A stretch of DNA of 64,000 bases from Cyanidioschyzon merolae (GCA_000091205.1 AP006499.2), one strand, 5' to 3'; shown: positions 622-64,000, counted from the stretch's first letter. The notes: generated by a model from the sequence alone, not told the origin. Numbers and translations are program-made.

Positions 622-1166
622 CCACGCGTCTGGAGTCGCATCCTCGAACTTGATGGTCATGACTCACCAGTTCATTGCGAGTATCCGTCGAGGACACTAA
701 AATGTCGGGGATTGGATGCATATCGAGAAACCACGCGTCTGGAGTCGCATCCTCGGACTTGATGGGTATGACTCACCAGTTCATTGCGAGTATCCGTCGA
801 GGACACTAAAATGTCGGGGATTGGATGCATATCGAGAAACCACGCGTCTGGAGTCGCATCCTCGGACTTGATGGGTATGACTCACCAGTTCATTGCGAGT
901 ATCCGTCGAGGACACTAAAATGTCGGGGATTGGATGCATATCGAGAAACCACGCGTCTGGAGTCGCATCCTCGAACTTGATGGGTATGACTCACCAGTTC
1001 ATTGCGAGTATCCGTCGAGGACACTAAAATGTCGGGGATTGGATGCATATCGAGAAATCATGCGTCTGGAGTCGCATCCTCGAACTTGGTGGGTATGACT
1101 CACCACTTCATTGCGAGTATCCGTCGAGGACACTAAAATGTCTAGAGGTTGACTCCGCGTCTGGAT
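622..1166. repeat. Tandem satellite, ~109-nt unit, ~5 copies (last copy divergent)
   Basis: Unit starts ('ccacgcgtctggagtcgcatcctcg...') recur at 622, 731, 840, 949 and 1058 with >90% identity. Confidence 0.85.
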
Positions 1167-2219
1167 GAGTCACCGGCGGAGCCGCTCATCCCTGGTGGTA
1201 TTTCCTGCGCAAACACTTTCCAGGAAATCATCTGGGAACGTGATTCAGGTCGGTGTCACGCAACATTTTTCAGATGTCTTTTCGCAGGATAGACAGAGTT
1301 GCGGCTCGCTGTTGCCACGACTATCGATAGGGATGGTGCTGAACACCTGGTAAACATCTCCTCGAAACAGGAGTGTTGTTCCGAAGCCACAAGAATGCGC
1401 CGCCGCCGAGCGCCAAAACTCGAACAGCGCACCTCTCCTCGTGATCCAATACAGGCTCAAATTTTGGGGAAAGATGCAGTATGCACGAGAAAACGGCATA
1501 CGCATGCTTGGACTAGATGTTTAAACGGGAAAGCGCGAGGGCCTGCCACACGCGACGTTTTTGAGCGCCACACCGCACGCTCTAATGGCAACACCCCGAA
1601 TATGGCAAAGCAACATGCGCGAAACTATGGCGCTGGACCCGACAGCTACAATGGCGAACAGCTGACTCAGACCTTTGCACTGTACGTTCCGACCTGTGCA
1701 TCGCCGCAGCTACGCAAAAGCTTCCGCTTCTGTTCCGAAACTGTGATCACAGGTCTTGCAGTGCTGCCGATCGCGAAACGCATAGCAGGCTGCGAGTCGA
1801 GGGGCAAGGTACCAGAGGCTGCCCTTCCCGGGCAGCACCAGGCCTCACACACACGGACGAGGGTGAGGTTTCCGTATCGGGCGCGTACAAGAGGCAAGCG
1901 CTTCGCCTGGGCCGTACAGCGTAGAGCCTACGGAGCCACTTGTGTCCCGGTTCTGTGGCGAGTCAGAAGCAGTCGTTTTGGCTGTGAACCCGCGCTGCTG
2001 GGCACTGCGAAGCGTCGAGTGACGCGCACTTCGAACGCCGCGGGTACTCTCCAGGGTGCAGGCGGGCGCTTGTTTTCAATACCTACCGACCGTTCGGAAC
2101 AGGAGCGTAGACACGACGACCAAGTGATCGCTCCCAGTCGGCCAGACGGCTACCAAAGTTTGGCTGCGAACGGCACCTGCTCACAGTACTAGCAGCGCAG
2201 GGGTAGCGACACCCGTGTC

Positions 2220-4844
2220 ATGAACCTGTTCGCAGACCCGCCTTTAACTGCATTCGTGAAGGCGCTTCGTTCGCACCAGCACGAGGAGTTGTCTTTTGTG
2301 CAAAAGCAGCTTGAGCTGCTTCGAAGCGAGTGCGAGGACCGCGATCCGGAAAAGAAAGCCTGGGCCTTGCTGAAGCTGACTCACCTGAACCAGCACCTAC
2401 TAGCAGGCGACCTATCGTTCACCGCTTTTCCTATCGTGGAAACAGCCACTCGGTCTGTTCTATGGCAAAAACAGGTCGGATTGCTTGCTGCGAGTCTGCT
2501 CTTCCATTCTCAGACTCCGGAGACACTGCTACTCGCGAATCAATTGAGAAAAGATCTTCACAGTGGCAACCGCAACGAACAGGCGCTTGCGCTGACAGGG
2601 TTTGCGGGTTTCGCCTCCGCGGACCTCGCTGAGGCTTTGTGGCCCGACGTTGCAGCGCTGTTCACGAGCGCTCGTCCGTACCTGCGTAAGCGAGCAGTGG
2701 TCGCCTTCCATCGCAGCGTTCGTCAGTGCCCAGAGGTGCTGCCAGCGTGCTGGCCTCGCTTTGTCAACCTCCTGCAGGACGCCGACCCTTCCGTGGTCTG
2801 CGCATCAGTCACCGTTGCACTCGAAGAGGTGCATACGTATCCAGAACTGTTTATACAAGTGATTCCCCGTTTTTATGAAATCGCCAGCCAGGGCGGTAGC
2901 AATTGGTTGCTCATCAAAGTCCTGATGGTTCTCGACGCTCTGTGTGCACATGAACCGCGTCTACCAAAGAAACTCGCATCTTTGGTGACAAGCATGATAG
3001 AGGCAACCCAGGCCAAGTCGTTGGTGTTCGAATGTTGCCGAGTCGCATGTCGTCGCTTGGCCGATGACGGCCATTTGCTCTGTGTTGCCATTGCTCGTCT
3101 AATTGCGTTTGTTGAGGGTACCGATCAGAACCTTCGATACTTGGCGCTGAAAGTACTCCGCAATGTTGTCGAGTACCGGCCATCGATCATTTCGCAGAAA
3201 CAGTTGCAAGGCGTTCTCAACGAGTTACAGAACAACGACATCCTGGTGCGGCTTGCAGCGCTAGAATTGCTTTCGAGCAGAGTGCATACTGCCGATGACT
3301 TACGATGCCTGGCTCAGAGCATGGAGCGGATGTCGCTGTTAGAGCCCGCACCGGGGCGGGCCCCGAACCGGGACACATCCGAGGAGCTGCGATTTCGCTC
3401 GATGTTGTTCAGTGAGCTGTGGCGATGCATTCGAAGGGTGTTTCCGGATGGATCCACTGATCTGGCAGAGGCAGATGCAGCGTGGTTGCTTGTGTCCATC
3501 GTTCGCCCGGCGCTTGTTCGGGCATCACAACTCGATGAGAAAAACGTGGAGCGGTTTGCGGTGTTGCTTTGGAAGCTTGTTCAATTACATGAATCGCTAC
3601 GCGGATCTGCAGCGGCTGTGTGTCGTCAGGTTCTCGACCGCTGCCTCTCGGAATCACACGATTGGATCCGGTACTACGGCGCTATTCGAGTTTGTGTTTG
3701 GATACTGGGCACCAGTCTTGAAGGTGTGAACGACTCGTCTCGTGCCGCCAATGACCTGGAACGACTCACGGGACTGTTCCAGCTTTTCGAATGCGTACGC
3801 ACGGGCGACGAGGAATTGGACAGTTTCGCAGCACTCCAGACGACGGTGCTGCGAACATTGCGCTTTTGCTGTGAGCATTTGCAGGCTGACTTTTCCTTGC
3901 AAGTCAGAGAGCGCCTCCAAAGAATCGTTCTATTGAGTCCAAGCGCCTTTGAGGAGCACTGGCGCCTCCTGGGCATCCAGCGAGACGTCCAACGCCGAGC
4001 GGGAGAGATCACTCGTCGCAGCGCCCCGCACCCCGGGGCACTCCAAGCGCTTTTGCGTTCGCTGCCCGCTCTCTCGTCACACGAACTATCCGAGTGTTGG
4101 GCTGATCCGCACGACTTGCCGCCACCGACACCGACACCAGCGATACGTCGACCACGAAAGCATTCGGAATCACAGGGCGCATCTCGGAGTGGCAACAATG
4201 CCGAGGCGGCGCTCCTGCTGCTCGACACCGTCGACGCCAATGATGTCGTACGTGCGCCGCTGACAGCACTGCCGTACAGGTCCGCTGCGCCCGCAAGTGC
4301 AACAAATGAATCCAGGGGCGAAAGAGACGCGAGCAGCGCGCATCCTCTGCAAGCGTCAGCGAGTGCGGGATTCACCACCGCATCTGATGTCTGGGCAGCA
4401 CATCGTTTCGCGAGTGCCCCCGACGACACCTCAACGGATGCCACAGGAATGGAGGCAGCGGGAGCAAGCGCCCGCTCCACCACCGAGCTCGAGCACCTCG
4501 CATTCTACCTCCGTGATGCACCGAGCGCGCACGCACACGCACGACACGCACACGCACCAGCAGCCTCCGTGCCCTCGAATCAGCAGGCTGCTGATGCGCT
4601 CTCGATCGGCGCCAGTCTGCAGGGCAATGCGTGCACCAGGCATGATGCGATGCAGGGCGCACGCATCGCAGGTACCAGCGATGCCCCGGATGATGCCCTG
4701 TTGATTGACTTTTGTGCACCGTATGCAGCAATCGACGGTGGTGATGCTCCTGCAGGTGATGATGCACCATCTACGACCGGGGCTGACAACTTGGGACCGG
4801 GTCGGTGTGTTGCGACCCCGGAGCATACCCAAGCAGCAGTGTGA
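2220..4844 (+). CDS. AP3D1: AP-3 complex subunit delta (adaptin large subunit); C-terminal low-complexity His/Ala-rich tail
   Basis: N-terminal half aligns with adaptin N-domain motifs: 'NQLRKDL', 'ALTGFAGF..ADLAE', 'RPYLRKRAV', 'SNWLLIKVLMVLDAL..EPRLPKKL', 'KSLVFEC', 'TDQNLRYLAL'. These match the AP-3 delta family. Confidence 0.7.
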   Translation: MNLFADPPLTAFVKALRSHQHEELSFVQKQLELLRSECEDRDPEKKAWALLKLTHLNQHLLAGDLSFTAFPIVETATRSVLWQKQVGLLAASLLFHSQTPETLLLANQLRKDLHSGNRNEQALALTGFAGFASADLAEALWPDVAALFTSARPYLRKRAVVAFHRSVRQCPEVLPACWPRFVNLLQDADPSVVCASVTVALEEVHTYPELFIQVIPRFYEIASQGGSNWLLIKVLMVLDALCAHEPRLPKKLASLVTSMIEATQAKSLVFECCRVACRRLADDGHLLCVAIARLIAFVEGTDQNLRYLALKVLRNVVEYRPSIISQKQLQGVLNELQNNDILVRLAALELLSSRVHTADDLRCLAQSMERMSLLEPAPGRAPNRDTSEELRFRSMLFSELWRCIRRVFPDGSTDLAEADAAWLLVSIVRPALVRASQLDEKNVERFAVLLWKLVQLHESLRGSAAAVCRQVLDRCLSESHDWIRYYGAIRVCVWILGTSLEGVNDSSRAANDLERLTGLFQLFECVRTGDEELDSFAALQTTVLRTLRFCCEHLQADFSLQVRERLQRIVLLSPSAFEEHWRLLGIQRDVQRRAGEITRRSAPHPGALQALLRSLPALSSHELSECWADPHDLPPPTPTPAIRRPRKHSESQGASRSGNNAEAALLLLDTVDANDVVRAPLTALPYRSAAPASATNESRGERDASSAHPLQASASAGFTTASDVWAAHRFASAPDDTSTDATGMEAAGASARSTTELEHLAFYLRDAPSAHAHARHAHAPAASVPSNQQAADALSIGASLQGNACTRHDAMQGARIAGTSDAPDDALLIDFCAPYAAIDGGDAPAGDDAPSTTGADNLGPGRCVATPEHTQAAV

Positions 4845-9689: not shown

Positions 9690-9767
9690 CGCCTCAACAC
9701 ATCAGGGGCGCTCGCCGTCGCATGAATCGTCAGACGCCGTGGACATGCGCGAGCCGTACGATGGACG

Positions 9768-10545
9768 CCTCGCTCGCCCGGAATGCCGATCAGCATCGCG
9801 CAGTCGAGAATCCCTGCTCCATCGCAACGCTCCGTTGATCCGGCGTTCAGGAGCGCCTCGCTCGCCCGGAATGCCGATCAGCATCGCGCAGTCGAGGATC
9901 CCTGCTCCATCGCAACGCTCCGTTGATCCGGCGTTCAGGAGCGCCTCGCTCGCCCGGAATGCCGATCAGCATCGCGCAGTCGAGAATCCCTGCTCCATCG
10001 CAACGCTCCGTTGATCCGGCGTTCAGGAGCGCCTCGCTCGCCCGGAATGCCGATCAGCATCGCGCAGTCGAGAATCCCTGCTCCATCGCAACGCTCCGTT
10101 GATCCGGCGTTCAGGAGCGCCTCGCTCGCCCGGAATGCCGATCAGCATCGCGCAGTCGAGGATCCCTGCTCCATCGCAACGCTCCGTTGATCCGGCGTTC
10201 AGGAGCGCCTCGCTCGCCCGGAATGCCGATCAGCATCGCGCAGTCGAGAATCCCTGCTCCATCGCAACGCTCCGTTGATCCGGCGTTCAGGAGCGCCTCG
10301 CTCGCCCGGAATGCCGATCAGCATCGCGCAGTCGAGGATCCCTGCTCCATCGCAACGCTCCGTTGATCCGGCGTTCAGGAGCGCCTCGCTCGCCCGGAAT
10401 GCCGATCAGCATCGCGCAATCGAGAATCCCTGCTCCATCGCAACGCTCCGTTGATCCGGCGTTCAGGAGCGCCTCGCTCGCCCGGAATGCCGATCAGCAT
10501 CGCGCAGTCGAGGATCCCTGCTCCATCGCAACGCTCCGTTGATCG
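9768..10545. repeat. Tandem array, 88-nt unit x ~8.8, immediately upstream (5') of GALT
   Basis: Unit 'cctcgctcgcccggaatgccgatcagcatcgcgcagtcgag[a/g]atccctgctccatcgcaacgctccgttgatccggcgttcaggagcg' recurs every 88 nt from 9768. Copies alternate an A/G variant. Confidence 0.9.
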
Positions 10546-12293: not shown

Positions 12294-12512
12294 AGTGCGC
12301 GGTAATGTATCTATCAACCCCCCACTCCCAAGTTACATTACCTGCACTTCTTCTCGGATATTCTGGTCGTTTCGTACGTCCAATCGTGTGCCTAGTGCCT
12401 GCCGAACGCGACAGCAATAGCGCCTATAGCGCCGGTACGGTCGCTGCACGGAGACAGAACGGCGTTGCTGTACCACACAAAGGGCGCCGGCTCGAGGTCG
12501 AGTGTGTGGGTG

Positions 12513-17829: not shown

Positions 17830-20560
17830 AATTCGTGAGGCGACTTGCGCAACAAGAATACTCTGTCGACGCCCGGCATTCATAGCTATCCACCACATGC
17901 ACATTCCGCAATTCCCCGCACTACTGTTTGGTGGTTTCTTCCTGCACCGAACGTTGGACAAGAGCTCGGATGCTTGGCTCGCGCATCCCGGTCTCCGAAC
18001 CAGATGGCTGTATCTTGGCCACCTGGCACCAGCATGGGTTGCAGATCCCATGGATTGCATCCTGTTCGAATATGGGGCGGACGGCACCTCAGTCGCTCGT
18101 ACCCGGAACGAGCTCTGCGCTTTAGTCATTCAGGAAGAACGCTTAAATGCGCTCGCAGATACGTTTTGTAAGCCAAGTCCGTCGTCTCGCATCTGGTGAG
18201 ACGAGCAGTCACATGCTCTGTCTGTTGAATCTTGTTTTTTGCGTGTTCCTCGTGCTGTAAACGAGCCTCGCCTCGAGGCCGTATCTTCTGCTTCGGTCAA
18301 CGGCACGTATCTGACCCTGGGCTCGAGTACGCGACGGCGACCAGGTCCAGAATACCTGGCTCTTGGCCCACGAGTCTTTCGTAATTTTTCAGAGGCGGGA
18401 GGCTTTCTTCGTCTGCCATTTGCCCCGAGATATTCGGCGATGCGCTCAGTTGAAAGCTAGAACCGAACCCATCCGAGAGAAAATGGAAACTGAATGCACC
18501 GTTTCTGGTTTCGGCTGCTTAGATATTAAGGTTTTCGCGTTAAACCTTCCTCTTCATTTCCTCACTCGCTTTCCTTTCATTCTCAGCATGCCGTGGCGTC
18601 GTAGAATGCCCACGACACTCAAGTAAGTTAAAGGAACGTAACCAGTGATGAAGCCACGCTTTGTAGACAAGAGAGTGTACGTCGTGGGGCGTAGTGTACC
18701 TCTTCTGTCTTGTGCATCCTATTTTCGCCGGGAATTTGAAGCATTTACACACTTTTCTACCAATTCGTTTCACAGCGAAAGAGGCCAACGCTTCTTGGAA
18801 GAATGTCTCAGAGACATGCCTTGGGGAATGCATCTCTTCACGTCTTCCACGATCTCTGCCGCCAAGTTCAGCTTCGAATTACTTGTTCGGTCACTCGGAC
18901 GGAAGCGAACCTCGAGACTTTCGAACGATCCCGCGGGTACGACACAGGAAATCTCTTTTTCTCTCTCCCGAGGCTCTCTTTATTCATTTTCCATACTCCA
19001 GCTTGATCGAATCCTATCTAGGAACGACCACCCGTTTGTGGCCGCTCCGCTCGCCCGAGCTTCGGCCTTCTTGCATCCGCGTCCTCTCAGTGTCTGTTCG
19101 AAGCGAGATAAACGATCATGTGAACAGCGTCCGTCATCGCAAGCGAGAATCCCCAGAATGTGCAAGATCGCAAGGGCGTAGGGTTCCCTTCCCAGTCAGT
19201 TGCCTAAGGTAACTTTAAAACGGGAACGAGACACTTTATATTTCTTGGCGATGATGGTCTTGCAGGGAAGCAACCAGCTACATCTCGGTGAAGCGAACTT
19301 CCCCTTGGGTCACTCGCTCTCGTTCGTCATCCTCTCTCTCCCCAGCTCGAGTCAGACGGTACATTTTTTCTGTGCACCACAGGATGTGTTACACTGGTCC
19401 CAACAGCATAATGTCTTTCTTCACGTGGAAACATACCTTGAATCTCTAATTTATTCGAGAAAACCGAAGACTCGATACGTCATTTTGTTGCTCCAGAGGA
19501 GCTGAACCAGCTTTGCACAAGCGCTGGTGTATGGACGCTGCACTCGGTAACGACGAAATGGAACACACCTGGTCGCAGTGTTGCGATTTCTTTTCCGGGT
19601 TTTTTCAATTGTCCCGCCTTCTTATTCGAAACCCAGAAATAGGAACTTTCGGATTGACACGAACAATACGTATACATGGTTGTCGACTCGGAGAGGCCCC
19701 TTCGATTCGTAGCCATTGGAATTCCGTAGCTCCCGGGAATCACGATGATTCGCGACGCTCTCGAACAAGAATTCGTAAAATAACCTATACCATGATGCAA
19801 TGCATCCGTGCATGCCTCGAGTCATCTTGTATTTGCTAACATGCAGCATGTTCGAATAACGCATGCTTCATGTTTCGATCTTTGTGTCTCGAGGCAACTC
19901 GTCGGCGCTAGAATACGTGCCGCTGGATTGACGACACAAAAAAAAACGCGACATCGTTCATTGACGACTTGTTCGCAAGCTCGTGCTGAAAGTTTGCTGA
20001 GCAATCAAAGTCTAATAATCGATTCCATTCGATTGAAAAATCCTTCTCGGTTTACAATCATCGATGAAACGACATTCCACGTCATCTTGATATCTTGTAT
20101 GATGTATGGTTCCAGATGCTTCCGTCTTCGCATTTTGTACGGAAAACCGTCTTCGACTCGGACTTGAGTTGCCATGGCGATCGCTTCCGCTGGCGAGGTC
20201 GTCATTGCTCTGTATGATGCTTGTGGAACGGATCGAAAGATCTCTGTTTGATCGCCAACCTGGATTTTTCTTCCAGTACTTGTTTCATTGTGGACCAGAT
20301 CTCGTTCCACTAGCCCTCTATCGAATAGAACAGTGTACGCGTCACGGGTATCGCCCAGACGAAGCCCCTGGTTATAGAGTACGGCATCGAACGCGGAAGA
20401 GGAGGGCAGCATCAAGCCGATCCTCGTGCATTCGTCAAAGGAATGTACCAAGCGATAAAACAAGCGTTTACGCGCCACACGGCGACGCCGTGAGCAGGAG
20501 AAAGTGTACTAGACTCCTAGGAACATCTCACCACAGCCAGGTGTCACCAATACGAGGCGC
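17830..20560 (-). pseudogene. Degenerate TnpB/Fanzor-like copy 2 (multiple frameshifts/stops)
   Basis: Minus-strand ORF pieces are collinear with copy 1. 20005-20478 'FDAVLYNQGLRLGDTRD..LVERDLVHNETSTGRKIQVGDQTE..KMTWNVVSSMIVNREG' matches '[58 protein letters not shown]'. 19480-19800 'IIVIPGSYGIPMAT' matches RuvC-I '[14 protein letters not shown]'. 18540-18833 'QKRYTTPHDVH' matches '[10 protein letters not shown]'. Confidence 0.4.
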
Positions 20561-20912: not shown

Positions 20913-21791
20913 TCAAATTGCTCGATTGGGATCCTGACTGCGCGCAGAAGCTGCACTTTGTTCGCTGGTGAACGCCCTGCCAGAGGCTGGTTTCCGAGGC
21001 ACACCCCGCGTGGCCTCCGTCAGCCAGCCACCACCCGAGTCCTGGCCGTGACCGCTCGAAACCGCACTCGAGTTCATCGTTCGCCGTGAAGATGCGTCAG
21101 TGGTCGGCTCGATGTACTGCGCTGCGGGAGCCGAAACTCCACCCTTCTCCAGTCCGTCTGCCTGGTCGGTGTCCTCAGTGCCGGACGCTTGGCGTTTGCC
21201 CCAGAACCAGCCGCGCCCCGTTTTCGTGGACCCGGACGATGCTGATGCGGCCGCTGTGGTGTGCGTTGGGCCCGCATCCGCCGCAAACTCATGATTCTTG
21301 CCAAAGAAGACGTTGAGGAAACTGAAAGAGACGATGACGGCCCCAGATACAATTAGGAGCACTTTGCTCACGGTATCGCTGTCGCTAACACCAGCCGTGA
21401 TAGCCAGCGAACCGGTGAACATCTCGAACAAGCCACGTCCCCAGCGCCCTTTCAAGAACCCGAACGGGCGGAAAAAGAAACGAGGCCGACCGATTTCACC
21501 AAATATAATCAGCAAACCGAAAAACGCGACATACAGCATCACAATGAAGCCCAGCGGGTTGCGCAGCGCCTGTGCTGCTGTCGTGAAAAGCGTCACGAGC
21601 CCGAAAACTCCGGTGAAAACGAGAAAACCCCCCGAAACCACTGTGCACCACCGGAGCACTGTGCTTACCTTCCGCAGATCAGCCTCAAAGCAAATGCAGT
21701 TCTTCATCGAAACGAGCCCAAAACGTGCGATGAACGACGCCGACCGTGTACAGCAGTGGCGAACCGTACGCCCTGGACAGACCGTGTCCAA
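20913..21791 (-). CDS. Multi-pass membrane protein (possibly COPI-associated/TVP15-like); true start may be M at 21709
   Basis: Hydrophobic helices 'GGFLVFTGVFGLVTLFTTAAQ', 'GFIVMLYVAFFGLLIIFGEIG', 'LLIVSGAVIVSFSFLNVFF'. GC-rich like host genes. Lies directly between the two Fanzor-like copies. Confidence 0.35.
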   Translation of the reverse strand: MDTVCPGRTVRHCCTRSASFIARFGLVSMKNCICFEADLRKVSTVLRWCTVVSGGFLVFTGVFGLVTLFTTAAQALRNPLGFIVMLYVAFFGLLIIFGEIGRPRFFFRPFGFLKGRWGRGLFEMFTGSLAITAGVSDSDTVSKVLLIVSGAVIVSFSFLNVFFGKNHEFAADAGPTHTTAAASASSGSTKTGRGWFWGKRQASGTEDTDQADGLEKGGVSAPAAQYIEPTTDASSRRTMNSSAVSSGHGQDSGGGWLTEATRGVPRKPASGRAFTSEQSAASARSQDPNRAI

Positions 21792-24265
21792 CTGACGTGT
21801 AGACGCCTCCCCGTCTTTTCGGACCGGGCATCCACCACTGCTTCCAACTTCTTCTCATATAATTCCACTTTTAGAGGTTGTCCAATAAAGTTCTCTCTTG
21901 TCCAATCTGGAGGTCTTTCCTCCAGCACCGCACATTTCCTTATATGGATAGCGGCATTGAAGTCTCGGTTCACATACTCCATCCGTTTTTTGTTGCCATT
22001 GATTGTACGAACAAGCGCAAGGAGTCCACGAACGTTCGCCCTTCTTTCCATTTGCTCCCCCGTCATCGGTCCGTGCTTTGCTATTTCCTCAGGGCTCCGT
22101 TGGCACTTTTCTATCTCCACTCTCTGAAGTGTACACCCCAGTTCCTGGTGTGTATACGATGTTCGAAACTCATCTACAGGTATCGTAACAAAACGCCTTG
22201 CGCACGCCTTGTACACCCTCGTCGTTGGAGCTGGCGTAGTTCCTTTTTGGGTCATCCATCGTCCTGCCCCGTACGCTACAACCAGCCTTTGACTTTCATC
22301 CTCCTTCAGGACGCTCAACTCATTGAAAAATTCGCGAACGCCCGCTGGTTCCCACAATACAAATTCATTCGGAAACGAGCCCACCGGGGCTTGGTATACT
22401 CCTCCCACAGCGCATCCCAATGGGCAACACGAACTTCCATGAATTTCCGAAAAGCTTCAAAGTCCGCTCCACGGCTCGTCATCTCGCTCAGAGCTTCCAG
22501 GTGATCCTTCATTCCATGTCTCGACTTTCTTCCTCGCATTCATTATACCGGATTCTCGATGGTATCTTGCTCTCGAGAACCTCAAAAGACGCATGTCTTT
22601 CTGACGAAAGTTGCCCTCAGTACCATCTTCCGCACGCTTCGGTGCTGTGATGGTGATGATATTTGTGTTTCCGGGGTCCGCGCCAACAACAAAGTCGTTA
22701 TCCTGCACTTTCTGTGTCACAGGACCTGCCTTCTTGGTTTCTTCATGCTTCTCCGCGTAAACGACATGCACGTTATCCTCCACCTCCTGCGTCGCAGGAT
22801 CCACCTCCTTCTTTTCTTCATCCTTCGCCGCGTAAACGACAAGGTCGTTATCCTCCACCTCCTGCATCGCAGGACCAGCCTCCTCCCTTTCTTCATGCTT
22901 CGTCGTGTCAACGACAAGGTCGTTATCTTGCACCCTCTGCGTCGCAGGATCCGCCTCCTTCTCATCTCCATCCTTCGCCACGTCAACGACATGCACGTTA
23001 TCCTCCACCTCCTGCGTCGCAGGACCAGCCTCCTCCTTTTCTTCATCCTTCGTCACGGGCGCAGCTGAGGGAGGGACTGGCCGATCTGCCTTCAACCGCC
23101 GATAGTGTACACACAAGGCTACTCCATCGGTTTCGATCATTCCAGTGAATATCTTTTGTTTGCCGACTTTGAGCCGTTTGAAATCGAAGATATTCTTCCA
23201 GTACGTCTCCCGGTTTTCGCCGGTGAACTCTGTCCTCCTTACATCGAACTCCGGACTGATCTCCTTCATGATGCCGTAAAGGATTCTGGAATCGATGCTC
23301 ACAAAATGTGACTTGATGTTGCACATTGGAACCACGTTGAAGCGCTTCCCCATTAGGACAGCCTCCCGTCTCTCACACGCTTCATTTTTTTCCTCACTCA
23401 GCTTCGTTTCTGCCTTGCGTTCGAGCTCTCAGTCCAGAAACACGAAATATCGCAGGACGAGGCGATAGTATCTTTTCTTATCTTTTTTCATCTCTGATAT
23501 CTTGTCTGTTGGATTCACGAGCCCCAAGACTGCACGGTGCTCTTGTATAGCCGCACGGATTCCAGAAGCTTCATTCGTGAACTAGTTTGACGCTTTCTTG
23601 TCAACGATTTCGACCTCATCTTCACGCTTGCCATCTTTCGTGATGCCATTGATCATCGCCCATGTTCCTTTGCGAGATAGGCCCGGGTAGAGTGCAAACA
23701 CGGCGCGTATCATGAAACGTTCGAGGTTCACTGTCAAATGGTTCTTCAGGTTCGTGATGTACTTCATCGCCCCGTATATGTAAAAATTCGAGTCGCCCTT
23801 GTATCGAGTACCCTCGAAGCGGATTTTGGCGAAGTTTTCGTGGAGGTGCACTAGCACATTTTCCCTCCGCGTTTTCTCTCCACCAAGCATCAGGTGTCGA
23901 ATAAACGTCTTGTCGAAAAACTCGTCCGGAATCTCGACCGTTTCCATATCCGTCACGTCGCGATACATCTCCCTTGCCAAATGCATCAGTCCTGACGACG
24001 CCTTGACAACAATCTTGGAGTACGAGTCGACACGTTTTTTGATAGCGTCTCGCAACTTTTCCCTGTAGGGATCCTTGATATGTCCAAGACGAAAGGTTTT
24101 CACCACCTTCTCGTCGTACAGTCGTCTCTCGTGACGCCTTCGACGTAGGGCCTCCCCCTTTCGGTTCTTCTTCTCTCCCTGTTCTTCTGGACTCGGCACT
24201 GTTTTTTGTTTTTTTCTAGCAGCCGGCGACCATGGCCCTCCAGGATCGTGGACTTGCTTTTTCAT
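21704..24265 (-). CDS. TnpB/Fanzor-like RuvC nuclease (near-intact copy 1); ORF segments 24265-23582, 23353-22457, (22539-22315), 22420-21704 in different frames, probably joined by introns
   Basis: N-terminal basic NLS-like 'ARKKQKT...[17 protein letters not shown]'. RuvC-I '[18 protein letters not shown]' (D at about 22676-22678). Zn-ribbon-like '[35 protein letters not shown]' (HCCH). RuvC-III '[12 protein letters not shown]' (D at about 21962-21964). Confidence 0.55.
22676..23050. repeat. In-frame 75-nt x5 tandem duplication inside the Fanzor-like CDS, ending in the RuvC-I motif
   Basis: Minus-strand protein units '[25 protein letters not shown] / [25 protein letters not shown] / [25 protein letters not shown] / [25 protein letters not shown] / [25 protein letters not shown]'. 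Confidence 0.85.
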
Positions 24266-24582
24266 AACTTTCCTTTTATTAGTTTTTTTTTGAAAAAGAA
24301 CCCTCTTTGAACCCTTGTGTTATATACTGCGAAAAAACACTTGACTAGACTTGTTTGAGGTTTGAAGCAAAAACGAACTGAAAGACTGTACTTTGCCACG
24401 TCTTTAACGCAAGTACAGCTTGCACATTAGAGCAGCACGCTATTGATCAGGATCGCGTTTCCCTTCAACGGCGACAAGTGCGTCGCATCAGTTGACTGCC
24501 CGATCTCCCAGATGCGCTCAGTGAGCGCGCTGGGCGCATCGCCCCGTTAAAAACGCGCAAAGCACAGTGCCTCGACACAAGT

Positions 24583-25979
24583 CTACCCGTCGCGCACCGA
24601 GGCTAGGCGCAAGGCCGCTGGCGACGCCTTGGCTGGCCTGGTGTCGCTGCGCTCCGGAGACATCGACTCAGGTACCGAGTGTGGTGCCTGCGCAGACGCC
24701 GAGCGCCCCGTTACGAATAGAGAACGCACCGGTGAGCGTTCAAAGACCCCAGCAGACCGACAAGCATCCGCAAGTAGTCGACCGGCAGGTGTAAATACCC
24801 CAACGATCCAGCGCGTTGTTGTGGCAGCAGCAGTATCAGCGTCTCGTTCGGCTAACGTTGGTTGTAGAGACGCCAGCGGCACATACGGTTCAACACGAAT
24901 CACGCCCGTGCTTCCATACAGGTCGAACAGACCAAAGGAAGTTGTGCTAGTGTGCAGGACGTTACTAGGTCGAGTGCAGCGTCCCGCCCCGAGTTCGGTG
25001 GCGGCTCCAGCCACTCGGCCGGGAAAATACTGGCCAGCGAAAGCACTGCCTAAGCCACGAGCGCGACTGATGACCCAACGACCAAAACGCGCCTTTCTAA
25101 TAAAACGAGTTTGATCAGGCGCAACAAGTCCCGTCGAAGCCGCGTCACCAGCTGTTGGAGACTCGTGTCGCCAATGGCGTCGCGGTCCAGGCACGCTGGT
25201 AGTCGCTGCACTGGCACTGGTGTCGGTACCGGCAGTCGCTGCACTTCAGGGTCGCCCAACGCAGCCGCTTCCTCTTCATCCAGCGTCGTAACCAAGGTCC
25301 CGAAGCAGTCTACCTGCCCAAAGCTATGTTTCGCAAAGTAACTGGCAACCACCGGCTCAAGTCGACTCGCTAGAAGCGCATACAGCGGCCAACGACTCAA
25401 CAGTAGCACAGACTTTTGGACGAGACCTCGGGCTGTTGCAACAGCCTCCTCCTCAGCGCTAGCGATGCGACTGCAGTCCATCTGATGCTATCGGTAACAA
25501 GCTACACCGTACAACGTGTCGACAGTGACGCCCTGCCGAACCGTGAGGTACACCGTGTCGTGCTCGCGTCCATGCGCACCGTCGGGAAGCGCTCGCACGG
25601 CCACCTCGCGAAGCCAGTCGTTGTCAAGGTTCTGCGCTGAAGCTCCGGAGCGATCTTCTGTCTGGTTCACTTGCCAGTTCACCGACAACTCATCCGCTAA
25701 CTCAGCACACTCGACTTGGTACTCGTGCTTGGCGTGAAACCTGAACGCAAACCCGCGTTCACCGAACGGATCCGCAAAGCGCACGGCCGGTCGATCGTCG
25801 AGACGCCGCCCTCCTGCCCCATGCGATCTAGGCAGCGGGTATCGCTCTGTGCACAGAAGCGCGTTAAAACGGGTAGGCGTCGACTTCAGTGCAGCGGTGC
25901 AGCGAGGTATCCGTCTGAGTTGACTGAAAGCAGTTCGTGTCATGGAGACACGGTCGGCGGTCAGCGGGAAGGAAACCAC
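24583..25979 (-). CDS. Hypothetical protein split over three frames (25979-25488, 25481-25050, 25194-24583); possible introns; weak longin/DENN-like feel
   Basis: Consecutive minus-strand ORFs. No confident motif. Confidence 0.2.
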
Positions 25980-26568: not shown

Positions 26569-27284
26569 AACCGGTGCGCATCTCGCTGCTCCGAGCACAG
26601 CAGCGCGCACCATTGTCTCGACCAGGCATGCTCGAGCGGTTGCAAGCGTTCATTCGGAAGACTCGGTATCCATCGTGGATGTGTGTTCGGCGAACCCGGC
26701 TCGATGTCGCCGTCAACGCGCGACGCTCGGGCGCGCACCGCGACATCCAGCGAGCAACACCGGCGCCTATCGAACGCACCGCTCAGGAGCGTATCGTTGC
26801 CAAATCTGGATGCGGGCAGCGAATCGATACTGGGGCATCCGGGGGGCGGGCGGGAACCTGGAACCCCGAACACTGCGACAAGCCGGACATTGGTGTCGTG
26901 AGTGGCGCGGCGAGCGATATCACGCACGCGCGGGATGCTGAGAACGCTCCTGGACATTAGTGGTCAGGGATTTGGAGCTGGCTGCGTTGCTTGATCAGAT
27001 CGGTACCGTTGAACAGCGGGTACGGTGCCCGAATGATCATTGGGTAGCCTGGAACGATGTTCCCGAAGCGACGCTCTGCGACCGCAGCGCGACACGCTTT
27101 GGCACGTCCAGGGCAAGGCATCGTGTCCGGGTCGCCAGTCAATGGTGCCAGGTGCTGACCGCCCGCCGCCTGTGGTGATGTGTGCGGAGTGGCACCTGCG
27201 CCACCGCGTTGACAGCGGTGGCTACGTCAGACGCGGTTGTGGTTTGGAATCACGCGTGCACAAAATGCATCGCGTTGTAAGTGA

Positions 27285-27329
27285 CGGTGGTGGCGGCGGT
27301 GGCGGCGGTGGCGGCGGCGGCGGCGGCGG
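27285..27329. repeat. (GGY)n trinucleotide microsatellite
   Basis: 'ggtggtggcggcggtggcggcggtggcggcggcggcggcggcggt'. Confidence 0.9.
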
Positions 27330-35546: not shown

Positions 35547-36821
35547 TCATACGAGAACATCTGCACCCGGAGGAAGAGGCGCTCCCCGATTCCCCGACGA
35601 CACGGTATGTGTACACTCGTGCGCAGCATCAGCCGTAACGTCTTGCCGTACCGGGTAGCCGTCTGCGTAGTAGACGCGCTCGAGGCATAGTCCGTGCGCC
35701 GGAGCAGGTTTCACCCGGGGCGCAATGAGCGCACGCCCTCGACTGCCTTGCTGCAGCGCATCGACAACAAGCGCATCATCTAACTCGCCTCGAGCGACTG
35801 CGAGAAATGTTCCCATGATGTTCCGAATCATCCTGTAAAGCGCACCATCGAGCTCGAACTCGAATTTCCACACAGGTACAATACTATCTACGGGGGATGG
35901 CTCGACCGAGATTCGTCGGATCGTTCGTACCGTTGAACGCTGGATCTGGTGGCGATCGGCCTTTCCCGGTGGGCTGCTTGCGAACGCTCCAAAATCATGT
36001 GTTCCTACGAATGTCTGCAACATCTGTTGCGCTACCGCCCAGTGCTGCATCTGGCGGTAATCTGTGTACGCGTAACGATGGTAGAGCGGGTCGATCCATG
36101 CACCAGCAGAAAGGCGATAAACGTAGCGTTTGCCTTGTGCTCGGTAGATTGCATGCCAGGGCAGCAGCTGGTACGTTCGTGTCGAGGGTACAAGATACCA
36201 GGCCGGCGGCGGTGAGACCTCCATCGCTCGTACCTGAATCGTTCGGGGAAGGAGTCGATTCAGGGCATGCTCCAGTCGAGATGGCTCAAATGCGGATGTA
36301 GCGGCCTTCTGCTCGGGAATATCAAAGTGTATGACTTGGCCTCGAGCATGAACACCAGCGTCGGTGCGTCCAGCACCGACTACCTGGCAGTGCCAGGGAT
36401 AACCTCCGAGACGTTGTTGCAGGGCCGCTTCGAGTCGGCCCTGGATCGTTGGTGTCGCTCGTGACTTTGCCTGTCGCTGAAAGCCGTGAAAGTCGGTGCC
36501 ATCGTAGGCGACTACAGCTCGATAGCGCACGAGGTTCTCTGTCGATGGTGCGCTACCCGCGTTGCGAGTAGGCTGCTCACCGGCGAGGCACGCAACCGGC
36601 GACAAGTGACTGCCTCCGGGCAGCCAGCAACGGCGCTCTCGAAGGCATCGCCAGAATTGGCCTAGCCTCGACGCGTGCACGACAAGAAGCAAGCGCTTCT
36701 TTTGCAACTGCGGTCGAGTGACACTCGTAACCCAAGCAGGACGTTTTTTGAGGTCGCCCAGTGCTGCTGGGAAACGCACCTGCTTTGAATCACTAGAGGC
36801 ACTGTGAAACTGGAGTTTCAT
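35547..36821 (-). CDS. tRNA pseudouridine synthase, TruA/PUS family
   Basis: 'YRAVVAYDGTDFHGFQRQ' and 'GAGRTDAGVHARGQVIHFD' (catalytic Asp motif). Confidence 0.7.
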   Translation of the reverse strand: MKLQFHSASSDSKQVRFPAALGDLKKRPAWVTSVTRPQLQKKRLLLVVHASRLGQFWRCLRERRCWLPGGSHLSPVACLAGEQPTRNAGSAPSTENLVRYRAVVAYDGTDFHGFQRQAKSRATPTIQGRLEAALQQRLGGYPWHCQVVGAGRTDAGVHARGQVIHFDIPEQKAATSAFEPSRLEHALNRLLPRTIQVRAMEVSPPPAWYLVPSTRTYQLLPWHAIYRAQGKRYVYRLSAGAWIDPLYHRYAYTDYRQMQHWAVAQQMLQTFVGTHDFGAFASSPPGKADRHQIQRSTVRTIRRISVEPSPVDSIVPVWKFEFELDGALYRMIRNIMGTFLAVARGELDDALVVDALQQGSRGRALIAPRVKPAPAHGLCLERVYYADGYPVRQDVTADAAHECTHTVSSGNRGAPLPPGADVLV

Positions 36822-38962
36822 ATATACATGATCAGTGAAACAAAAAACGTTCTACGACTTTTGAGGGTAAAACTATATCAACGCGCAGAAGCTTCCCAGT
36901 TTGTTTTTCGTACCGGCCGACTGCTATAGGCTTCAGCTCCTCCTGGTAAATCTCGAGAATCAGGGGCTGCCCCACGAGCTCTGATCGCCTAACCTCCTCG
37001 GGTCTTGTCTTCAGCGTCGCCCATGTCCTGATATATGAATGGCGGCGTTCAGGTTTTGTATTCACGAACTCCATGCGTTTGCGGACCCTGGTTGAACGCA
37101 CGAATACACGGAGTCCTCGAACTCGTGCCGCCTGTGCCACTAAAGTCTCGACATACTCCCGTCGAGTAAACGCCTTTTCTCACCCATGTCCGTTCCTGTT
37201 CTTCTTATTGGTCAAATGGTCTGCTTCGCTCGGTGGTCGGCGAGGAGGAGGATTTTTCCTTTTTCAAGCATCCGGGGATGACAGGCCGTCAGGATCCGTG
37301 ACCTCCGTGTCCATAACTTTCCCCTGGATTTTTATTTCCTCAAAACGAACGCATCCCTTTATGCCGTTCGATGAGGACCTTCCCGGAGGCAGAAGGACTT
37401 GCGGAATAAAGACGACCGGTGCCGCTGGTTTCACCGTGGGCTGTACGCCTCAGCGATTCGCTCCGTCGACCGATCATTACACTTCACGATGGAAAACACG
37501 CCTGCGACGGGGATGGACCACGGAGTGTACCCAGGAATGAAAAGCAGCTCTACTCTCGATAGAATCCACAAAAGTTCGAATGCAATGGGAAAAGTCTCCA
37601 ACGATTAGGGAACGGCGTGCTGTTGTATGAGTCTTCTCTACGAGCGAAACTGAGGCCGCCAAATGAATCCACTGCAAATAGAACAGATGAAGAGGTCATT
37701 GGCCTCTTGGATTTCGATCCTACATAGAAAGGACTCCATCTCCACGAATACCCATGAACGCTCCCATCGCCGCGTCCGCAGAAAGCCTCATCGACAGAAA
37801 AACAAACCCCAGTCCCTGTGCTTCATATCGATGGTAACTTACCAGGAACATTGCTGTAGTTACGATTTCGGTCGAAGATGGCCGCGCTTGAACTAGGACT
37901 TTTGCGACTATATCCCAGTGTTTTCGAGACTACACGAAAAAGCTGGTGAGAAATAGAGACGCCCGTTGCGGCTGATATCGTCGGTTTCACCTACCCCAAA
38001 GTGAACAACGGGTCGCCTTCGACCATCTTTCGCAAGCAGTCTATGAATGTACCTGTTTTGGCGCGGAACGCATATACTTGGTCCTTTCAGTGTTCCTCAT
38101 CCAGCCGAGTCCATTGGTATGACTGATCTGAGGGAGGAATGCAGTCCTCATTGAACTGTTCACTAGAGCATATATCTAGACGCAATGCGTCTACGATCTA
38201 TCGAGTACATCGCATAGCGATTTCGATCTCGTGCTATACACCGCAGCAGGGATGAAACAGTACTGCGTTGGAAGGCTATAAGAAGTGATGCTCCGTAGCG
38301 TTAAGCGAAACCGCGGCGCCTCGACCTGGCGCGCGTCATTCGCATCACCTGCCTTTTAGAGAATAAGCTATCGATGAAGCCTCGCTTTGACAGAAATGGG
38401 GCGCGCTGTGGTGTGTTCGACACCCACATTGCGCTTCTTGACAAACGTCCCAAACGAAGACCATTTGCGTTGACGCCGTACCGACGACGCGAAGCGCCCA
38501 GCCAGCGGATCCGTCCTAGGCCTCGCTGGAGGGCGGCGCCTCCTTTGAAACGGCTCCGACCAGCTACGGCTGCAACAGCCGTGCACGTTCAGGAGCGCCC
38601 GTGCAACGCGTCGTCAAGTCGCCGGCGTCGAATGCGTGTTCGCTCCGACGGCTGCCTGGAAGCTACTTGGGCACGCCACTCTACTCAGTAAAGTGACGCA
38701 CTTCAGTCAATGTCATCCGGTGCATACGCGTTTACCAATAGTTCATGGTGAGAGGCGCAGCACGTCTGCATGTTCGGTCGACGATATCGCAACCGCAAGC
38801 ACACGCGATCCCGCGCAGAAAAGCCTTCCCTGTCCCTCTGCATCGGAACGAAATATCCGCGCAGAAATGTCTTCTCGCATGGTGAAGCGCTTCGCTCCCG
38901 AACGCAGTGCGTCAACTGCAGGAATTGCTTCCCGCCAAGTGCGCACGCGCGTGATACGATAC

Positions 38963-47786: not shown

Positions 47787-49995
47787 ATCCTGTTTTATAC
47801 AGTTTCTTCCGTTTTGTAGATGCAGGTACCGTTTCGATGATGCTGCCGACGACGCCGTGCAGCGCTAGGCGCCCGCGGCCAGCACGCTCGCAACGGGCAG
47901 CGTTTGCGCGCATGCATGAACCTCTGCCAGTGCGCGTGTGCGGCACCAGGAAGCACTGAGACGTGTTCGAGGCTGTGCTCTGAAGCCCGCCTGTCTGCCT
48001 GTCTGCCTGTCTGCCAATTGCGGACGCTGTGATCCCGGTAAATCATCCATGTGGCACCACTGCGGCAGGCAGTGCAGAGCTTGAATGCAGCACTCATCGA
48101 CTACCCAGCGTACGATAGCGACGACGCACATTCCGCGTGTTGACACGCGCCGGGTACCTATGGTCGGTGGCTGGAGATCGACAGGGAATGCCAGGTACCG
48201 ACGCCTTACAAAACGCTTTTGCCCGAACTGTGCCTGCTATGCAATGCGTATCGTCGGTCGAGCGACTGACGTCACACTGCAGCGCGCCCAGTAGCGAGAT
48301 GGTGCCAGAAACCTCGTACACGTCATCCAGTCATGCGTCAGGACGATACCTGGAGCTATGAGCACGTCATTTTGACTCTTTCGCTGCAGAGTTCAGCGAC
48401 GATCGACGACGGCATTCGGGAACTGTTTCTGTACCATCTCCGTATGGCAACAGCAGCGGGGTGCTTCCAGGGGCGCAACGGACCCGTGCGCCACACTTGC
48501 CACCCGGAGAGTCGCTTGAACGAATTATGATACCCCGATGCCAAGTAGGGTCTGCAGTTCGTCGAAATCAGGGTCGTGACTGGTGTGTGGACTACCATGC
48601 AGTCGAATACGGGTGAGTCTCGGCCGCTTTCCTGGCTACCGATAACCACGGCACATCCTGGAATCCCCGATTCGTCTCATCGATCCCAGACTATCAGGAA
48701 GGTTTCAGCGACATCGACGCGCTCGAAGCGAGAACGCATAACGCTTCACGATGCGAGGGTTTGCCTTCACCACGAGGGACTCGGATGCTTCCGAGTCGTT
48801 CATGCTGTGCATTCTGATGAACGAGTTGAGGTTAGGCGCAAGCGCCACCTGTTTCTACGTGCTCATCCTCTGACCGAGATCGCTCACAAAGATACGCGTT
48901 CACGTACCCTGGACATTGCCTATCGTATCGAGGAAGCGGGATGCAGTGCGCGATCCGCCACAAAAACGACCGCAGCGCGCTGGATGCGATGCAAAAGCGC
49001 AAAGGCACCCCTGCTGTGCACGAAACGCAACGAATGGCGGCGACTTGCAAGAGATCCACATTGAAACTGCTACAACAAAGCGGTTCATAACCGCTGGGCG
49101 AGCGCTATATAGCTGATACGTGAAGAAACGCAATACCACAAACGGCGCTTCTAGGACGGCCAACACACTCGCGTCATTCGCTCGATGCAGCAGAGCAATT
49201 TTTACATGCACCGTCGACGAAACCCAGCGCCCTGCCTGGACTTGTTTCGCAATATCGCAAGAACAAAGATGCGCTCGTAGGTACCAGAACATGCAGCGCA
49301 TTGCTCTCTCGAGTGAAGCGTGCCGTTGAATCCGCATCCAATGTCATGCAGAATCTGGAACTGGCCCAGCATACACGAATTCATAATTGCCGGCAGGTAC
49401 AGCACCTGTTGACGCGGCTACACCAAGCCGCATCTCGACGAGACTCGATTATGCTGTTTTCGTATCCCGTCAGCGGGTACGGAAAACGGAAACGGCAGCG
49501 GATCGCACCCCGTGATTTCGTGCTTATGGATCGGAAGCGCTGTTGTTCCTGTCATGGTGGCCTCGACGAGAGGTGCCACTCGCAATCCAAACATTCGCCA
49601 CGAATCAGGCTACTGGTGCAGATGCAGTTGATGGTTCAGCAGACGTTGTCAAATGACATCCTCTGTCGCATACGATACTGCACAACGAACGGATTTAACG
49701 ATGCTGCACATGTAGAACAAGTGCATCCGAGGAGACGCTCCACGTTCCGCAGCGTAGATTGCTTTCTGCCTTGACACTATTCCAAAGCGAACCGTCGCCC
49801 CAGGTGTCTCCATACAGCGCGGAGCGTCTGTGCTTCGACCGCGCATCCATTTACCACTGCAACCATTGAACAAGTCGTGCTTCTCGGCGTTATCTAGACC
49901 GGGTCCAACGGTGATGTGCATCGAACAAGTGACCTGTGAGCAACAATGGGCGTACTGGGGATGACAGACTCCGCAACTCGCGCGAGGTGCTCCTC

Positions 49996-50178
49996 GAAAC
50001 CCCGTAATACTCGGGGAATACGTCAGGCCATAAAGCCGAATGGCCCCGACGATGCATCATTGCATGCAAAGAAGCAGCATAACCTGGAAACCCCGTAATA
50101 CTCGGGGAAAACGTCAGGCCATAAAGCTGAATGGCCTCGACGATGCATCATTGCATGCAAAGAAGCAGCATAACCTGG
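49996..50178. repeat. 91-nt x2 tandem repeat with internal inverted repeats, in 3' flank of the WDR82 gene
   Basis: 'gaaaccccgtaatactcggggaa.acgtcaggccataaagc.gaatggcc.cgacgatgcatcattgcatgcaaagaagcagcataacctgg' occurs twice. Contains hairpin 'ccccg-taatac-tcgggg'. Confidence 0.85.
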
Positions 50179-50204
50179 AGTTGCCTTAGCAACCCGAACA
50201 TCGA

Positions 50205-63093: not shown

Positions 63094-64000
63094 TTTCTCT
63101 CCGACGATAAAACGTTTCCATGGACAATGGGTCCCAGATTGTGAGATGGATAATGATTATCGAAAGAGCGTCCATCATGACGCACTTACCTCCGAGTTCC
63201 ATTACCTATACTTGCTTCCAGATGTACTGGTCGTTTCGTATGTCCTATCGGTCACAGAGTACCTGCTTTGGGCGCCTGCGGTAGCGCTTATATATCGCTG
63301 ATGCCGATGCATCACGGAGACAGAACAGCGTTGCCATACCGTTGAGTTCGCTCGGGCGTACTGTGAAATGTTTGGCTCCCTTCCCAGTGTCATCAATACC
63401 AACCTTTGCAGGCTTTTTCTGTGACCGTTTCCCGTCGCTTTCTCTTATCCCTGGCTTGACATGCACCAGTCTCGCCTTTCTATCAAGAACAGCTGTCCAG
63501 TGTCGAAGGACGTTGATCACAGCGTTCAATGGCCGACTTGCCGCTTCAGGCTGTTGTCGACGCATACCATGCACAGGTGAACGTTGCGATCTATGCTTCG
63601 CTTGCGATTTTCATCTTCCATGGATAGAGCTTCGGTTGCCCTGTCGCAGATTTGGCACGTCCGTGTAATCGGATGTTCGCATATGTCCACCACACCGCAT
63701 CCTCCGAGGTGCACCCTGTTTCACGTGAACACTCGCGTCGTCGCTCGCTACGTACCCGTGACGAATACGAGAAATCGTCTCGATGCCTTCCTCCATCTAC
63801 GCGCTCGGTGCAGTACCCTGGAATCACGGGCTTCTTCTGTGCGATCCAACTGCCGCTGCTCTGGCTGTTGCAAGCACGTGTTGTACTATTCTATAACGGA
63901 CTTATCGAAGACGATGTATTCAACGACGAAACTATTACTTGAAGCAAAATCAAGGCTGGACAAGAAGGCAGGGAACCTCGATCTGTCCATGGTCGCTTCG

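Follow-up and report, generated by a model that had tools for sequence, protein, structure and literature searches.

The repeated block inside a nuclease gene on the minus strand of the analyzed window (the whole 64,000-nt, or 64-kb, stretch of DNA, which comes from chromosome 17 of Cyanidioschyzon merolae 10D) is very probably a neutral coding minisatellite of variable copy number, located in the linker between the WED domain and RuvC-I of a copy of CMe-1A, a transposable element of the Fanzor1 family. It is an ordinary finding, in that the repeat is a fresh example of a well-known kind, the coding minisatellite for a disordered segment. The array consists of five head-to-tail units of 75 nt, or 25 codons, that are in frame with both flanks, and was delimited using Tandem Repeats Finder, dissection of the individual units and a chance control:

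23056-22682, minus strand: coding minisatellite, five units of 75 nt (25 codons) each
23056-22982, minus strand: unit 1 (25 residues), ending DNVHVV(D)
22981-22907, minus strand: unit 2 (25 residues), ending DNDLVV(D)
22906-22832, minus strand: unit 3 (25 residues), ending DNDLVV(Y)
22831-22757, minus strand: unit 4 (25 residues), ending DNVHVV(Y)
22756-22682, minus strand: unit 5 (25 residues), ending DNDFVV(G), with ADPGNTN directly after it

An earlier note on this DNA had described five in-frame 75-nt duplications at 22676-23050, which differs from our delimitation only by a 6-nt shift in register; its description of units ending in DN[VD][HLF]VV, with ADPGNTN following the last of them, also agrees with our dissection. 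Tandem Repeats Finder called the array at a period of 75 (22696-23052, 4.8 copies, 80% matches, score 424) and alternatively at a period of 150 (22678-23054, 2.5 copies, 83% matches), with scores for the array ranging from 424 to 502. Pairwise DNA identity among the five units ranges from 73% to 91% (mean 0.80). In a chance control that drew runs of five adjoining 75-mers from 20,000 random positions of the window, the mean was 0.264 ± 0.032, and no sample other than the array itself attained 0.80. Several long open reading frames (ORFs) also run across the array on the plus strand or in another minus-strand frame (22559-23068, 22663-23148 and 22717-23046), and we rejected these as genes, since they are free of stop codons only because the repeat is. 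Three further minisatellites lie elsewhere in the window, repeating every 109, 88 and 91 nt, and the presence of these other arrays indicates that tandem duplication of blocks of about 100 bp is common in the C. merolae genome.

To place the array in its host gene, we used blastn against the published CMe-1A consensus (3,169 bp; supplement 2 of PMC3627910), together with frame translation, alignment to the consensus and tblastn:

21738-24531, minus strand: copy of the CMe-1A Fanzor1 transposable element, matching positions 646-3145 of the 3,169 in the consensus by blastn
21773-24265, minus strand: Fanzor1 (CMe-1) reading frame, pseudogenized

The origin of the window is secured by six of its ORFs, which match C. 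merolae 10D proteins exactly (BAM81962, 81963, 81967, 81968, 81971 (CMQ040C) and 81972). The blastn alignment of the copy to the consensus falls into two pieces divided by the extra units: consensus positions 646-2196 align to window positions 24531-22978 with 85.5% identity, and positions 2117-3145 to 22757-21738 with 86.6% identity. Similarity to paralogous loci extends over nearly the same span, from about 24543 to 21732, and residues 1-734 of the CMe-1 protein map to 24265-21776 by tblastn. The host element is therefore one that is already known, CMe-1A having been published in 2013 as the single Fanzor1 family described in the C. merolae genome (Bao & Jurka 2013, Mobile DNA 4:12; PMC3627910). 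According to that paper, the family numbers about 150 copies with roughly 80% identity each to a consensus of about 3 kb; they lack terminal inverted repeats (TIRs), and most are broken, a few being still intact. The window copy is from the same organism, shares 85-86% nucleotide identity with the consensus, and encodes the same protein from MxKxVxDPGGP to the C-terminus. It differs in having five units where the published consensus has one, in lacking the last ~24 nt, and in lacking the 5' module, which comprises the 645 nt before consensus position 646 and resembles TE-N2_CMe (635 bp). Among the related loci (best 80 of 157 matches), 27 likewise start at consensus positions 600-700, and 22 have the 5' module.

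A further difference from the consensus is that the window copy is a pseudogene. On the minus strand, three ORFs in a single frame surround the array (24265-23582, 23353-22457 and 22420-21704). The frame is broken by two premature in-frame stops (TAG at 23584-23582 and TGA at 23431-23429), and alignment to the consensus shows two deletions, one of 8 nt near 22515-22517 that shifts the frame and one of 1 nt at 22330 that restores it, leaving an out-of-frame stretch between about 22517 and 22330. In addition, the TAG stop of the consensus has become CAG at 21775-21773. Together with the two premature stops and the two frameshifts, this loss makes the copy a pseudogene. Neither the pseudogene status nor the membership in CMe-1A had been mentioned in the earlier note.

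That note had taken the gene for a RuvC nuclease, and the alignments place it in the TnpB/Fanzor class. The three acidic residues of a split RuvC domain (D, E, D) are present in order in the window gene, and the variable linker in which the array sits is bounded upstream by a conserved strand of the WED beta-hairpin:

23114-23134, minus strand: ETDGVAL, conserved strand of the WED beta-hairpin, from alignments
22661-22684, minus strand: RuvC-I motif GADPGNTN, catalytic Asp codon GAC at 22678-22676, aligned to D383 of SpuFz1
22157-22177, minus strand: RuvC-II motif VDEFRTS, Glu codon at 22171-22169, aligned to E541 in LLDEYKTS of SpuFz1
21950-21970, minus strand: RuvC-III motif NRDFNAA, Asp codon at 21964-21962, aligned to D606 in YWNRDML of SpuFz1

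Native SpuFz1 numbering is used here; in the structure 8gkh, chain residue 777 corresponds to D383 and chain residue 935 to E541. In a profile search of PDB sequences, SpuFz1 (8gkh) was the sole match, with E = 4e-9. A Foldseek search of the PDB was made with the model of P0001, the protein of a four-unit paralogue, and gave E-values of 6e-6 or lower for Fanzor structures only (SpuFz, GtFz and PpFz, probability 1.00), which were the sole matches at E ≤ 1e-5, while Cas12f and Cas12e appeared with non-significant E-values only. The TM-scores to SpuFz, GtFz and PpFz are low (0.19-0.29), because the P0001 model itself has a pTM of only 0.35. Pfam gave nothing significant, OrfB/TnpB models included, on the three ORF pieces, on P0001, or on the more distant homologues P0017 and P0022; the Cas12f1-like_TNB model reached a non-significant E = 0.043 on P0022 alone. 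The label PF26935 (DUF8286) also came up, and is weak and uninformative. The zinc-finger pattern CxxC...CxxC between RuvC-II and RuvC-III is absent from both the window copy and the consensus, which have just ELGC-x10-C at this point. On the strength of its ordered motifs and of these matches, we assign the gene to the TnpB/Fanzor-type RuvC nucleases.

Within this framework, the array occupies the segment that leads into RuvC-I, as had been proposed. It had further been suggested that the units before the last were decayed copies of the catalytic motif (VVDVAKDG and similar strings), and this does not hold: the residues that follow each VV, of the form [VA][TA]K[DH]EE..., are the start of the next unit. 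These strings are homologous to a 10-residue stretch of the linker that precedes the array, and the duplicated block ends just before ADPG. To see how the extra units might be accommodated in the protein, we compared AlphaFold2 models of P0001, which has four units (103-sequence alignment, mean pLDDT 58, pTM 0.35), and of the single-unit homologue P0017 (mean pLDDT 69, pTM 0.56); both are of moderate quality, and low pLDDT serves here as a proxy for disorder. The strands of the ETDGVAL hairpin are predicted in both models (residues 350-358 and 363-369 in P0001; 375-383 and 387-395 in P0017). In P0001, where the array covers residues 383-482, residues 373-472 are modeled as coil with a pLDDT of 26-31, and the only strand of the region is formed by residues 479-484 (FIVGAD), which carry the catalytic Asp. 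In P0017 the order is the same, with the WED hairpin, a linker of 20 residues (10 of them at low confidence) and RuvC strands 1-3. Only the last copy, with FIVGAD, forms RuvC strand 1 in the P0001 model; the earlier segments LIVD, FIVD and LVVD are not predicted as strands. The models therefore predict that the extra units make up a disordered acidic loop within a naturally variable linker. What had seemed unusual for a nuclease core would, by these models, lie outside the core, in the variable stretch between WED and RuvC.

We also considered whether the block could be an intron, or a minisatellite inside one that is removed by splicing, a possibility that the earlier note had raised. Units 1 and 2 do start with GT (GTGACG and GTGGCG). 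However, the 3' sides of the unit boundaries read GAC, TAC or GGC and never AG, the array continues the reading frame of the sequence on either side, the single ancestral unit belongs to the published protein, and the open frame of the paralogous locus L001 (encoding P0001) retains its four units. C. merolae has very few introns. We therefore consider splicing of this block extremely unlikely.

To determine how widespread the expansion is, we collected paralogues by scanning metagenome contigs from Cyanidioschyzon-like populations and retained the best 80 of 157 matches; the window copy is the only one from the 10D genome, all the other paralogues being from Yellowstone-type metagenomes. The length of each array was taken as the distance between the conserved anchors that flank it. 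Among the matches listed, 75 loci gave lengths of 63, 75 or 77 nt, 147 or 150 nt, 225 or 228 nt, 288, 291 or 300 nt, 372 or 375 nt, 450 nt and 522 nt. After near-identical loci had been merged, 44 distinct arrays remained among the matches listed, with one unit (5 arrays), two (9), three (11), four (9), five (7), six (2) or seven (1). The expansion is therefore a variable feature of the whole family and is not peculiar to the window copy, and it behaves as a minisatellite. In the consensus protein published for CMe-1 there is a single 25-residue unit, and the distant homologues P0016, P0017 and P0022 (~46-31% identity) have a single unit or a short linker without repeats. A second, profile-based search for homologues was saturated by fragments of CMe-1A and returned no new distant families. 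The terminal unit, recognizable by a characteristic 11-residue sequence, is common to nearly all copies.

The earlier note had called the expansion recent, and one could accordingly suppose that it arose in situ, in the window copy alone, after insertion of the element. In favor of some local change, units 1 and 4 share the variant DNVHVV, which we saw in none of the other paralogues' arrays, and no other pair is as similar as these two (91%), making at least one local duplication or conversion likely. Yet even this pair differs at 7 of 75 positions, and the five units differ from each other by 9-27%. The window units resemble those of other paralogues, often at the matching position in the array, at 0.88-0.92, as against 0.76-0.91 for their best partners inside the array, a comparison that we use qualitatively only, because the gap-free nearest-neighbor test is blurred by 3-nt indels (e.g., in L002 and L014). 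Furthermore, the syntenic Yellowstone locus L003, which is 97.8% identical over 8 kb and whose flanks have thus diverged by 2.2%, also has five units, and its array differs from that of the window at 2 of 375 nt. The five units of L003, the similarity across paralogues and the shared terminal unit all argue that the window array is mostly inherited and old, and we regard a recent origin specific to this copy as very unlikely. The same locus bears on the concern that the array is an artefact of assembly or collapse. Minisatellites are liable to mis-assembly, but units that have diverged by 9-27% are easy to assemble, and L003, which belongs to an independent metagenome assembly, gives five units as well; we see next to no chance that the array is artefactual.

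How units are gained can be read from two genomic sites at which different populations have arrays of different length: L062 (four units) and L043 (three units) represent one site, and L014 (seven units) and L023 (three units) the other. The flanks in both pairs are 98-99.5% identical over ~9 kb. In L062, the added units repeat an in-frame stop, so that EV*DKDLVVD occurs twice, and in L014 they repeat another, with T*KVHDNDFVVG occurring three times; in each case the stop is already present in the shorter allele. Units were thus gained after the death of the gene. Since the stop codon was duplicated along with the units, expansion continues in dead copies, which points to a process at the DNA level; we infer that the 75-bp units slip during replication or are exchanged unequally. 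The reading frame is kept through the gain and loss of units because 75 equals 3 x 25.

An opposing explanation holds that selection maintains the acidic repeat as an intrinsically disordered module with a function in the active Fanzor1 protein, the number of units serving as an adaptive tuning knob; such a module might be a DNA-mimicking autoinhibitory loop, a spacer that sets the geometry between WED and RuvC, or a module for interaction or localization. Several observations are in line with this. The best-preserved copy, L001/P0001, which contains the sole long open frame among the matches listed (819 codons, with D-E-D motifs intact), has four in-frame units. The composition of the units, which are K/E/D-rich with DNDxVV at the end, is kept among paralogues. 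Finally, almost every array has a length divisible by 3, including those that deviate from whole units (63, 147, 228, 288, 291, 372 and 522 nt), with a single array of 77 nt as the exception; this suggests that part of the history of the array took place under selection for an open frame, and that the array was present in active elements. Against a function of the extra units, however, one unit suffices in the consensus and in the distant homologues, the family shows one to seven units with no preferred number, dead copies continue to expand with stop codons duplicated, and the array is predicted to be unstructured. In addition, when the window's units are compared with each other, codon positions 1, 2 and 3 account for 52/59/38 differences, without an excess at the third position, whereas in the rest of the gene the window copy differs from the consensus at 69/59/135. 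The repeat units show no constraint by this measure, whereas purifying selection acted on the body of the protein during the family's active period. We therefore find a selected module very unlikely. A narrower proposal concerns the few intact CMe-1 copies, such as L001, in which the expandable acidic loop just ahead of the catalytic Asp could act as a DNA-mimicking or autoinhibitory tether whose length tunes nuclease activity, or could mark an insertion-tolerant site for Fanzor1 editors; we rate this as improbable too, and slightly more so.

The reading that we prefer, a neutral minisatellite, can be put as a sequence of steps. The ancestral state would be one 25-residue unit, an acidic linker together with the first half of RuvC strand 1. 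Early in the CMe-1A family, the 75-bp block that encodes it would have been duplicated head to tail, and whole units would since have been gained and lost through slippage or exchange of the kind described above. In the protein, additional units would extend the disordered acidic loop, with the real beta-strand supplied only by the unit next to ADPG, and they would be tolerated rather than functional; we infer that the extra units have no function. The five-unit array of the window would then be inherited for the most part, except that units 1 and 4 may be linked by a single local duplication or conversion.

Among characterized proteins, the closest to the host gene is SpuFz1, the Fanzor1 of Spizellomyces punctatus (PDB 8GKH and 9CEU-9CEZ), which is the best Foldseek match (E = 6e-9) as well as the PDB sequence match reported above, and which has the same order of TDG hairpin, linker, xDPx strand, DExxTS and NRD. 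Identity is only ~14%, with TM-scores of 0.24-0.29 to a model of moderate quality. The linker of SpuFz1 at this point is ~45 residues long and non-repetitive, and SpuFz1 has CxxC-type cysteines after RuvC-II, which CMe-1 lacks. Moreover, the activity of SpuFz1 and its omega RNA have been shown experimentally (Saito et al. 2023, PMC10432273), while CMe-1 is a predicted nuclease.

Among the relatives of Fanzor proteins, TnpB and Cas12 are RuvC nucleases whose guide RNA comes from the 3' end of the element. CMe-1A resembles bacterial IS200/IS605 TnpB and type V Cas12 in its split RuvC domain with D-E-D residues and in having a conserved hairpin at its extreme 3' end; it differs in that CMe-1 proteins have no significant match to the Pfam OrfB/TnpB models. 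The hairpin occurs in two sequence forms, with a mean z of -2.0 and z < -2 in 13 of 23 copies. The RNAalifold consensus for the last 280 nt of 24 copies is weak (-8.8 kcal/mol) and shows no covariation, and Rfam gave no match within window positions 21000-25000.

Regarding the repeat itself, the words "tandem", "minisatellite" and "expansion" are absent from the main text of PMC3627910, and the literature that we searched contained no paper linking Fanzor with a 75-nt repeat. Coding minisatellites (VNTRs) that encode disordered regions are reported, for example, for length-variable repeat genes of yeast (bioRxiv 10.1101/339663) and for the tandem repeats of Borgs (PMC9879509). The CMe-1A array is like them in having a period that is a multiple of 3, a copy number that varies between alleles and paralogues and a segment rich in charged residues that is predicted to be disordered. 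It differs in that its host is a mostly pseudogenized transposon nuclease and in that the array can be traced in ~150 paralogous copies. Selection on the CMe-1A repeat was not seen in our comparisons.

For annotation it matters that the array is reduced to one unit in the published CMe-1 consensus; length differences of 0 to 450 bp are to be expected at this point when copies are annotated or counted. The WED-to-RuvC-I junction accommodates up to ~150 extra residues, and at least one carrier has an open frame. Acceptance of extra residues in an open-frame copy hints that this site may tolerate insertions in Fanzor1 proteins, which we offer as a lead only. Lastly, because populations differ in array length at the same locus, the array might serve to tell strains of Cyanidioschyzon apart.

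Counted by codon position, the differences between the reading frame of the window's Fanzor copy (24265-21773) and the CMe-1A consensus number 69, 59 and 135 at first, second and third positions, respectively, so that third positions differ about twice as often as either of the others. Judged from this excess, much of the divergence of the copy accrued in lineages in which the protein was still under selection, in agreement with the long-lasting coding capacity of CMe-1A remarked on by Bao and Jurka (PMC3627910). Across the roughly 80 paralogous loci scanned, only one CMe-1 copy retains a long stop-free frame (L001:5800-8256, on a metagenome contig). This frame has 819 codons, four repeat units and intact D-E-D motifs, and its protein (P0001) shares a 90%-identity cluster with 21 members, which are found on contigs that vary widely in length. 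We regard it as a candidate active Fanzor1 gene of Yellowstone-type Cyanidioschyzon.

The extreme 3' terminus of CMe-1A (consensus ~3125-3169) forms a hairpin, seen for example at L023:5470-5508 and L061:5400-5437 in two paralogous loci, which is retained as two distinct sequence forms:

Form 1: GCGTCGTTCGA-CTT-TCGAACGGCG
Form 2: AACGTTTTTC-TTTT-GAAAGGCGTT

Its folding z-score averaged -2.0 over 23 copies and fell below -2 in 13 of these, and an invariant GGCG...CGCC hairpin lies immediately upstream. The terminal hairpin could be the end of an omega-RNA scaffold, or else a transposition signal. The window copy stops at ~21738-21732, and the 3' half of its terminal hairpin is gone. About 1.6 kb past this 3' end, a stretch of ~380 nt (19745-20127), possibly a further dispersed repeat, matches L001:12678-13056 with 66% identity. 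The matching DNA lies near another CMe-1A copy, and with respect to the Fanzor gene the match is inverted.

At its 5' side, the window copy (21.7-24.5 kb) is without the TE-N2_CMe-like module that makes up the first ~635-645 nt of the consensus. Among the related loci, this module is present in 22, and 27 start at consensus 600-700. Two fragments in the window match the module, and a second CMe-1 relic was found as well:

12328-12497, plus strand, 5'-module fragment, 78-80% identity within the initial ~250 nt of the consensus
63102-63346, plus strand, 5'-module fragment, 78-80% identity to the same ~250 nt
36880-37353, minus strand, CMe-1-like relic, matched by tblastn and blastn

The relic, which adjoins a pseudouridylate synthase gene (35547-36821), is far more decayed than the 21.7-24.5 kb copy: 36880-37128 corresponds to CMe-1 residues 647-728 at 44% identity (tblastn), and the CMe-1A consensus matches at 37001-37123 and 37260-37353 (blastn).

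The window also holds three minisatellites, younger than the 75-nt Fanzor array:

620-1142, period 109 nt, 4.8 copies, 98% matches
9766-10544, period 88 nt, 8.9 copies, 98% matches
49992-50179, period 91 nt, 2.1 copies, 95% matches

None of their periods is divisible by 3, and none overlaps an ORF of at least 300 aa in the window. In addition, a GGC/GTGGCGGCG microsatellite at 27281-27329 gives rise to poly-Gly and poly-Pro runs in ORFs of both strands.
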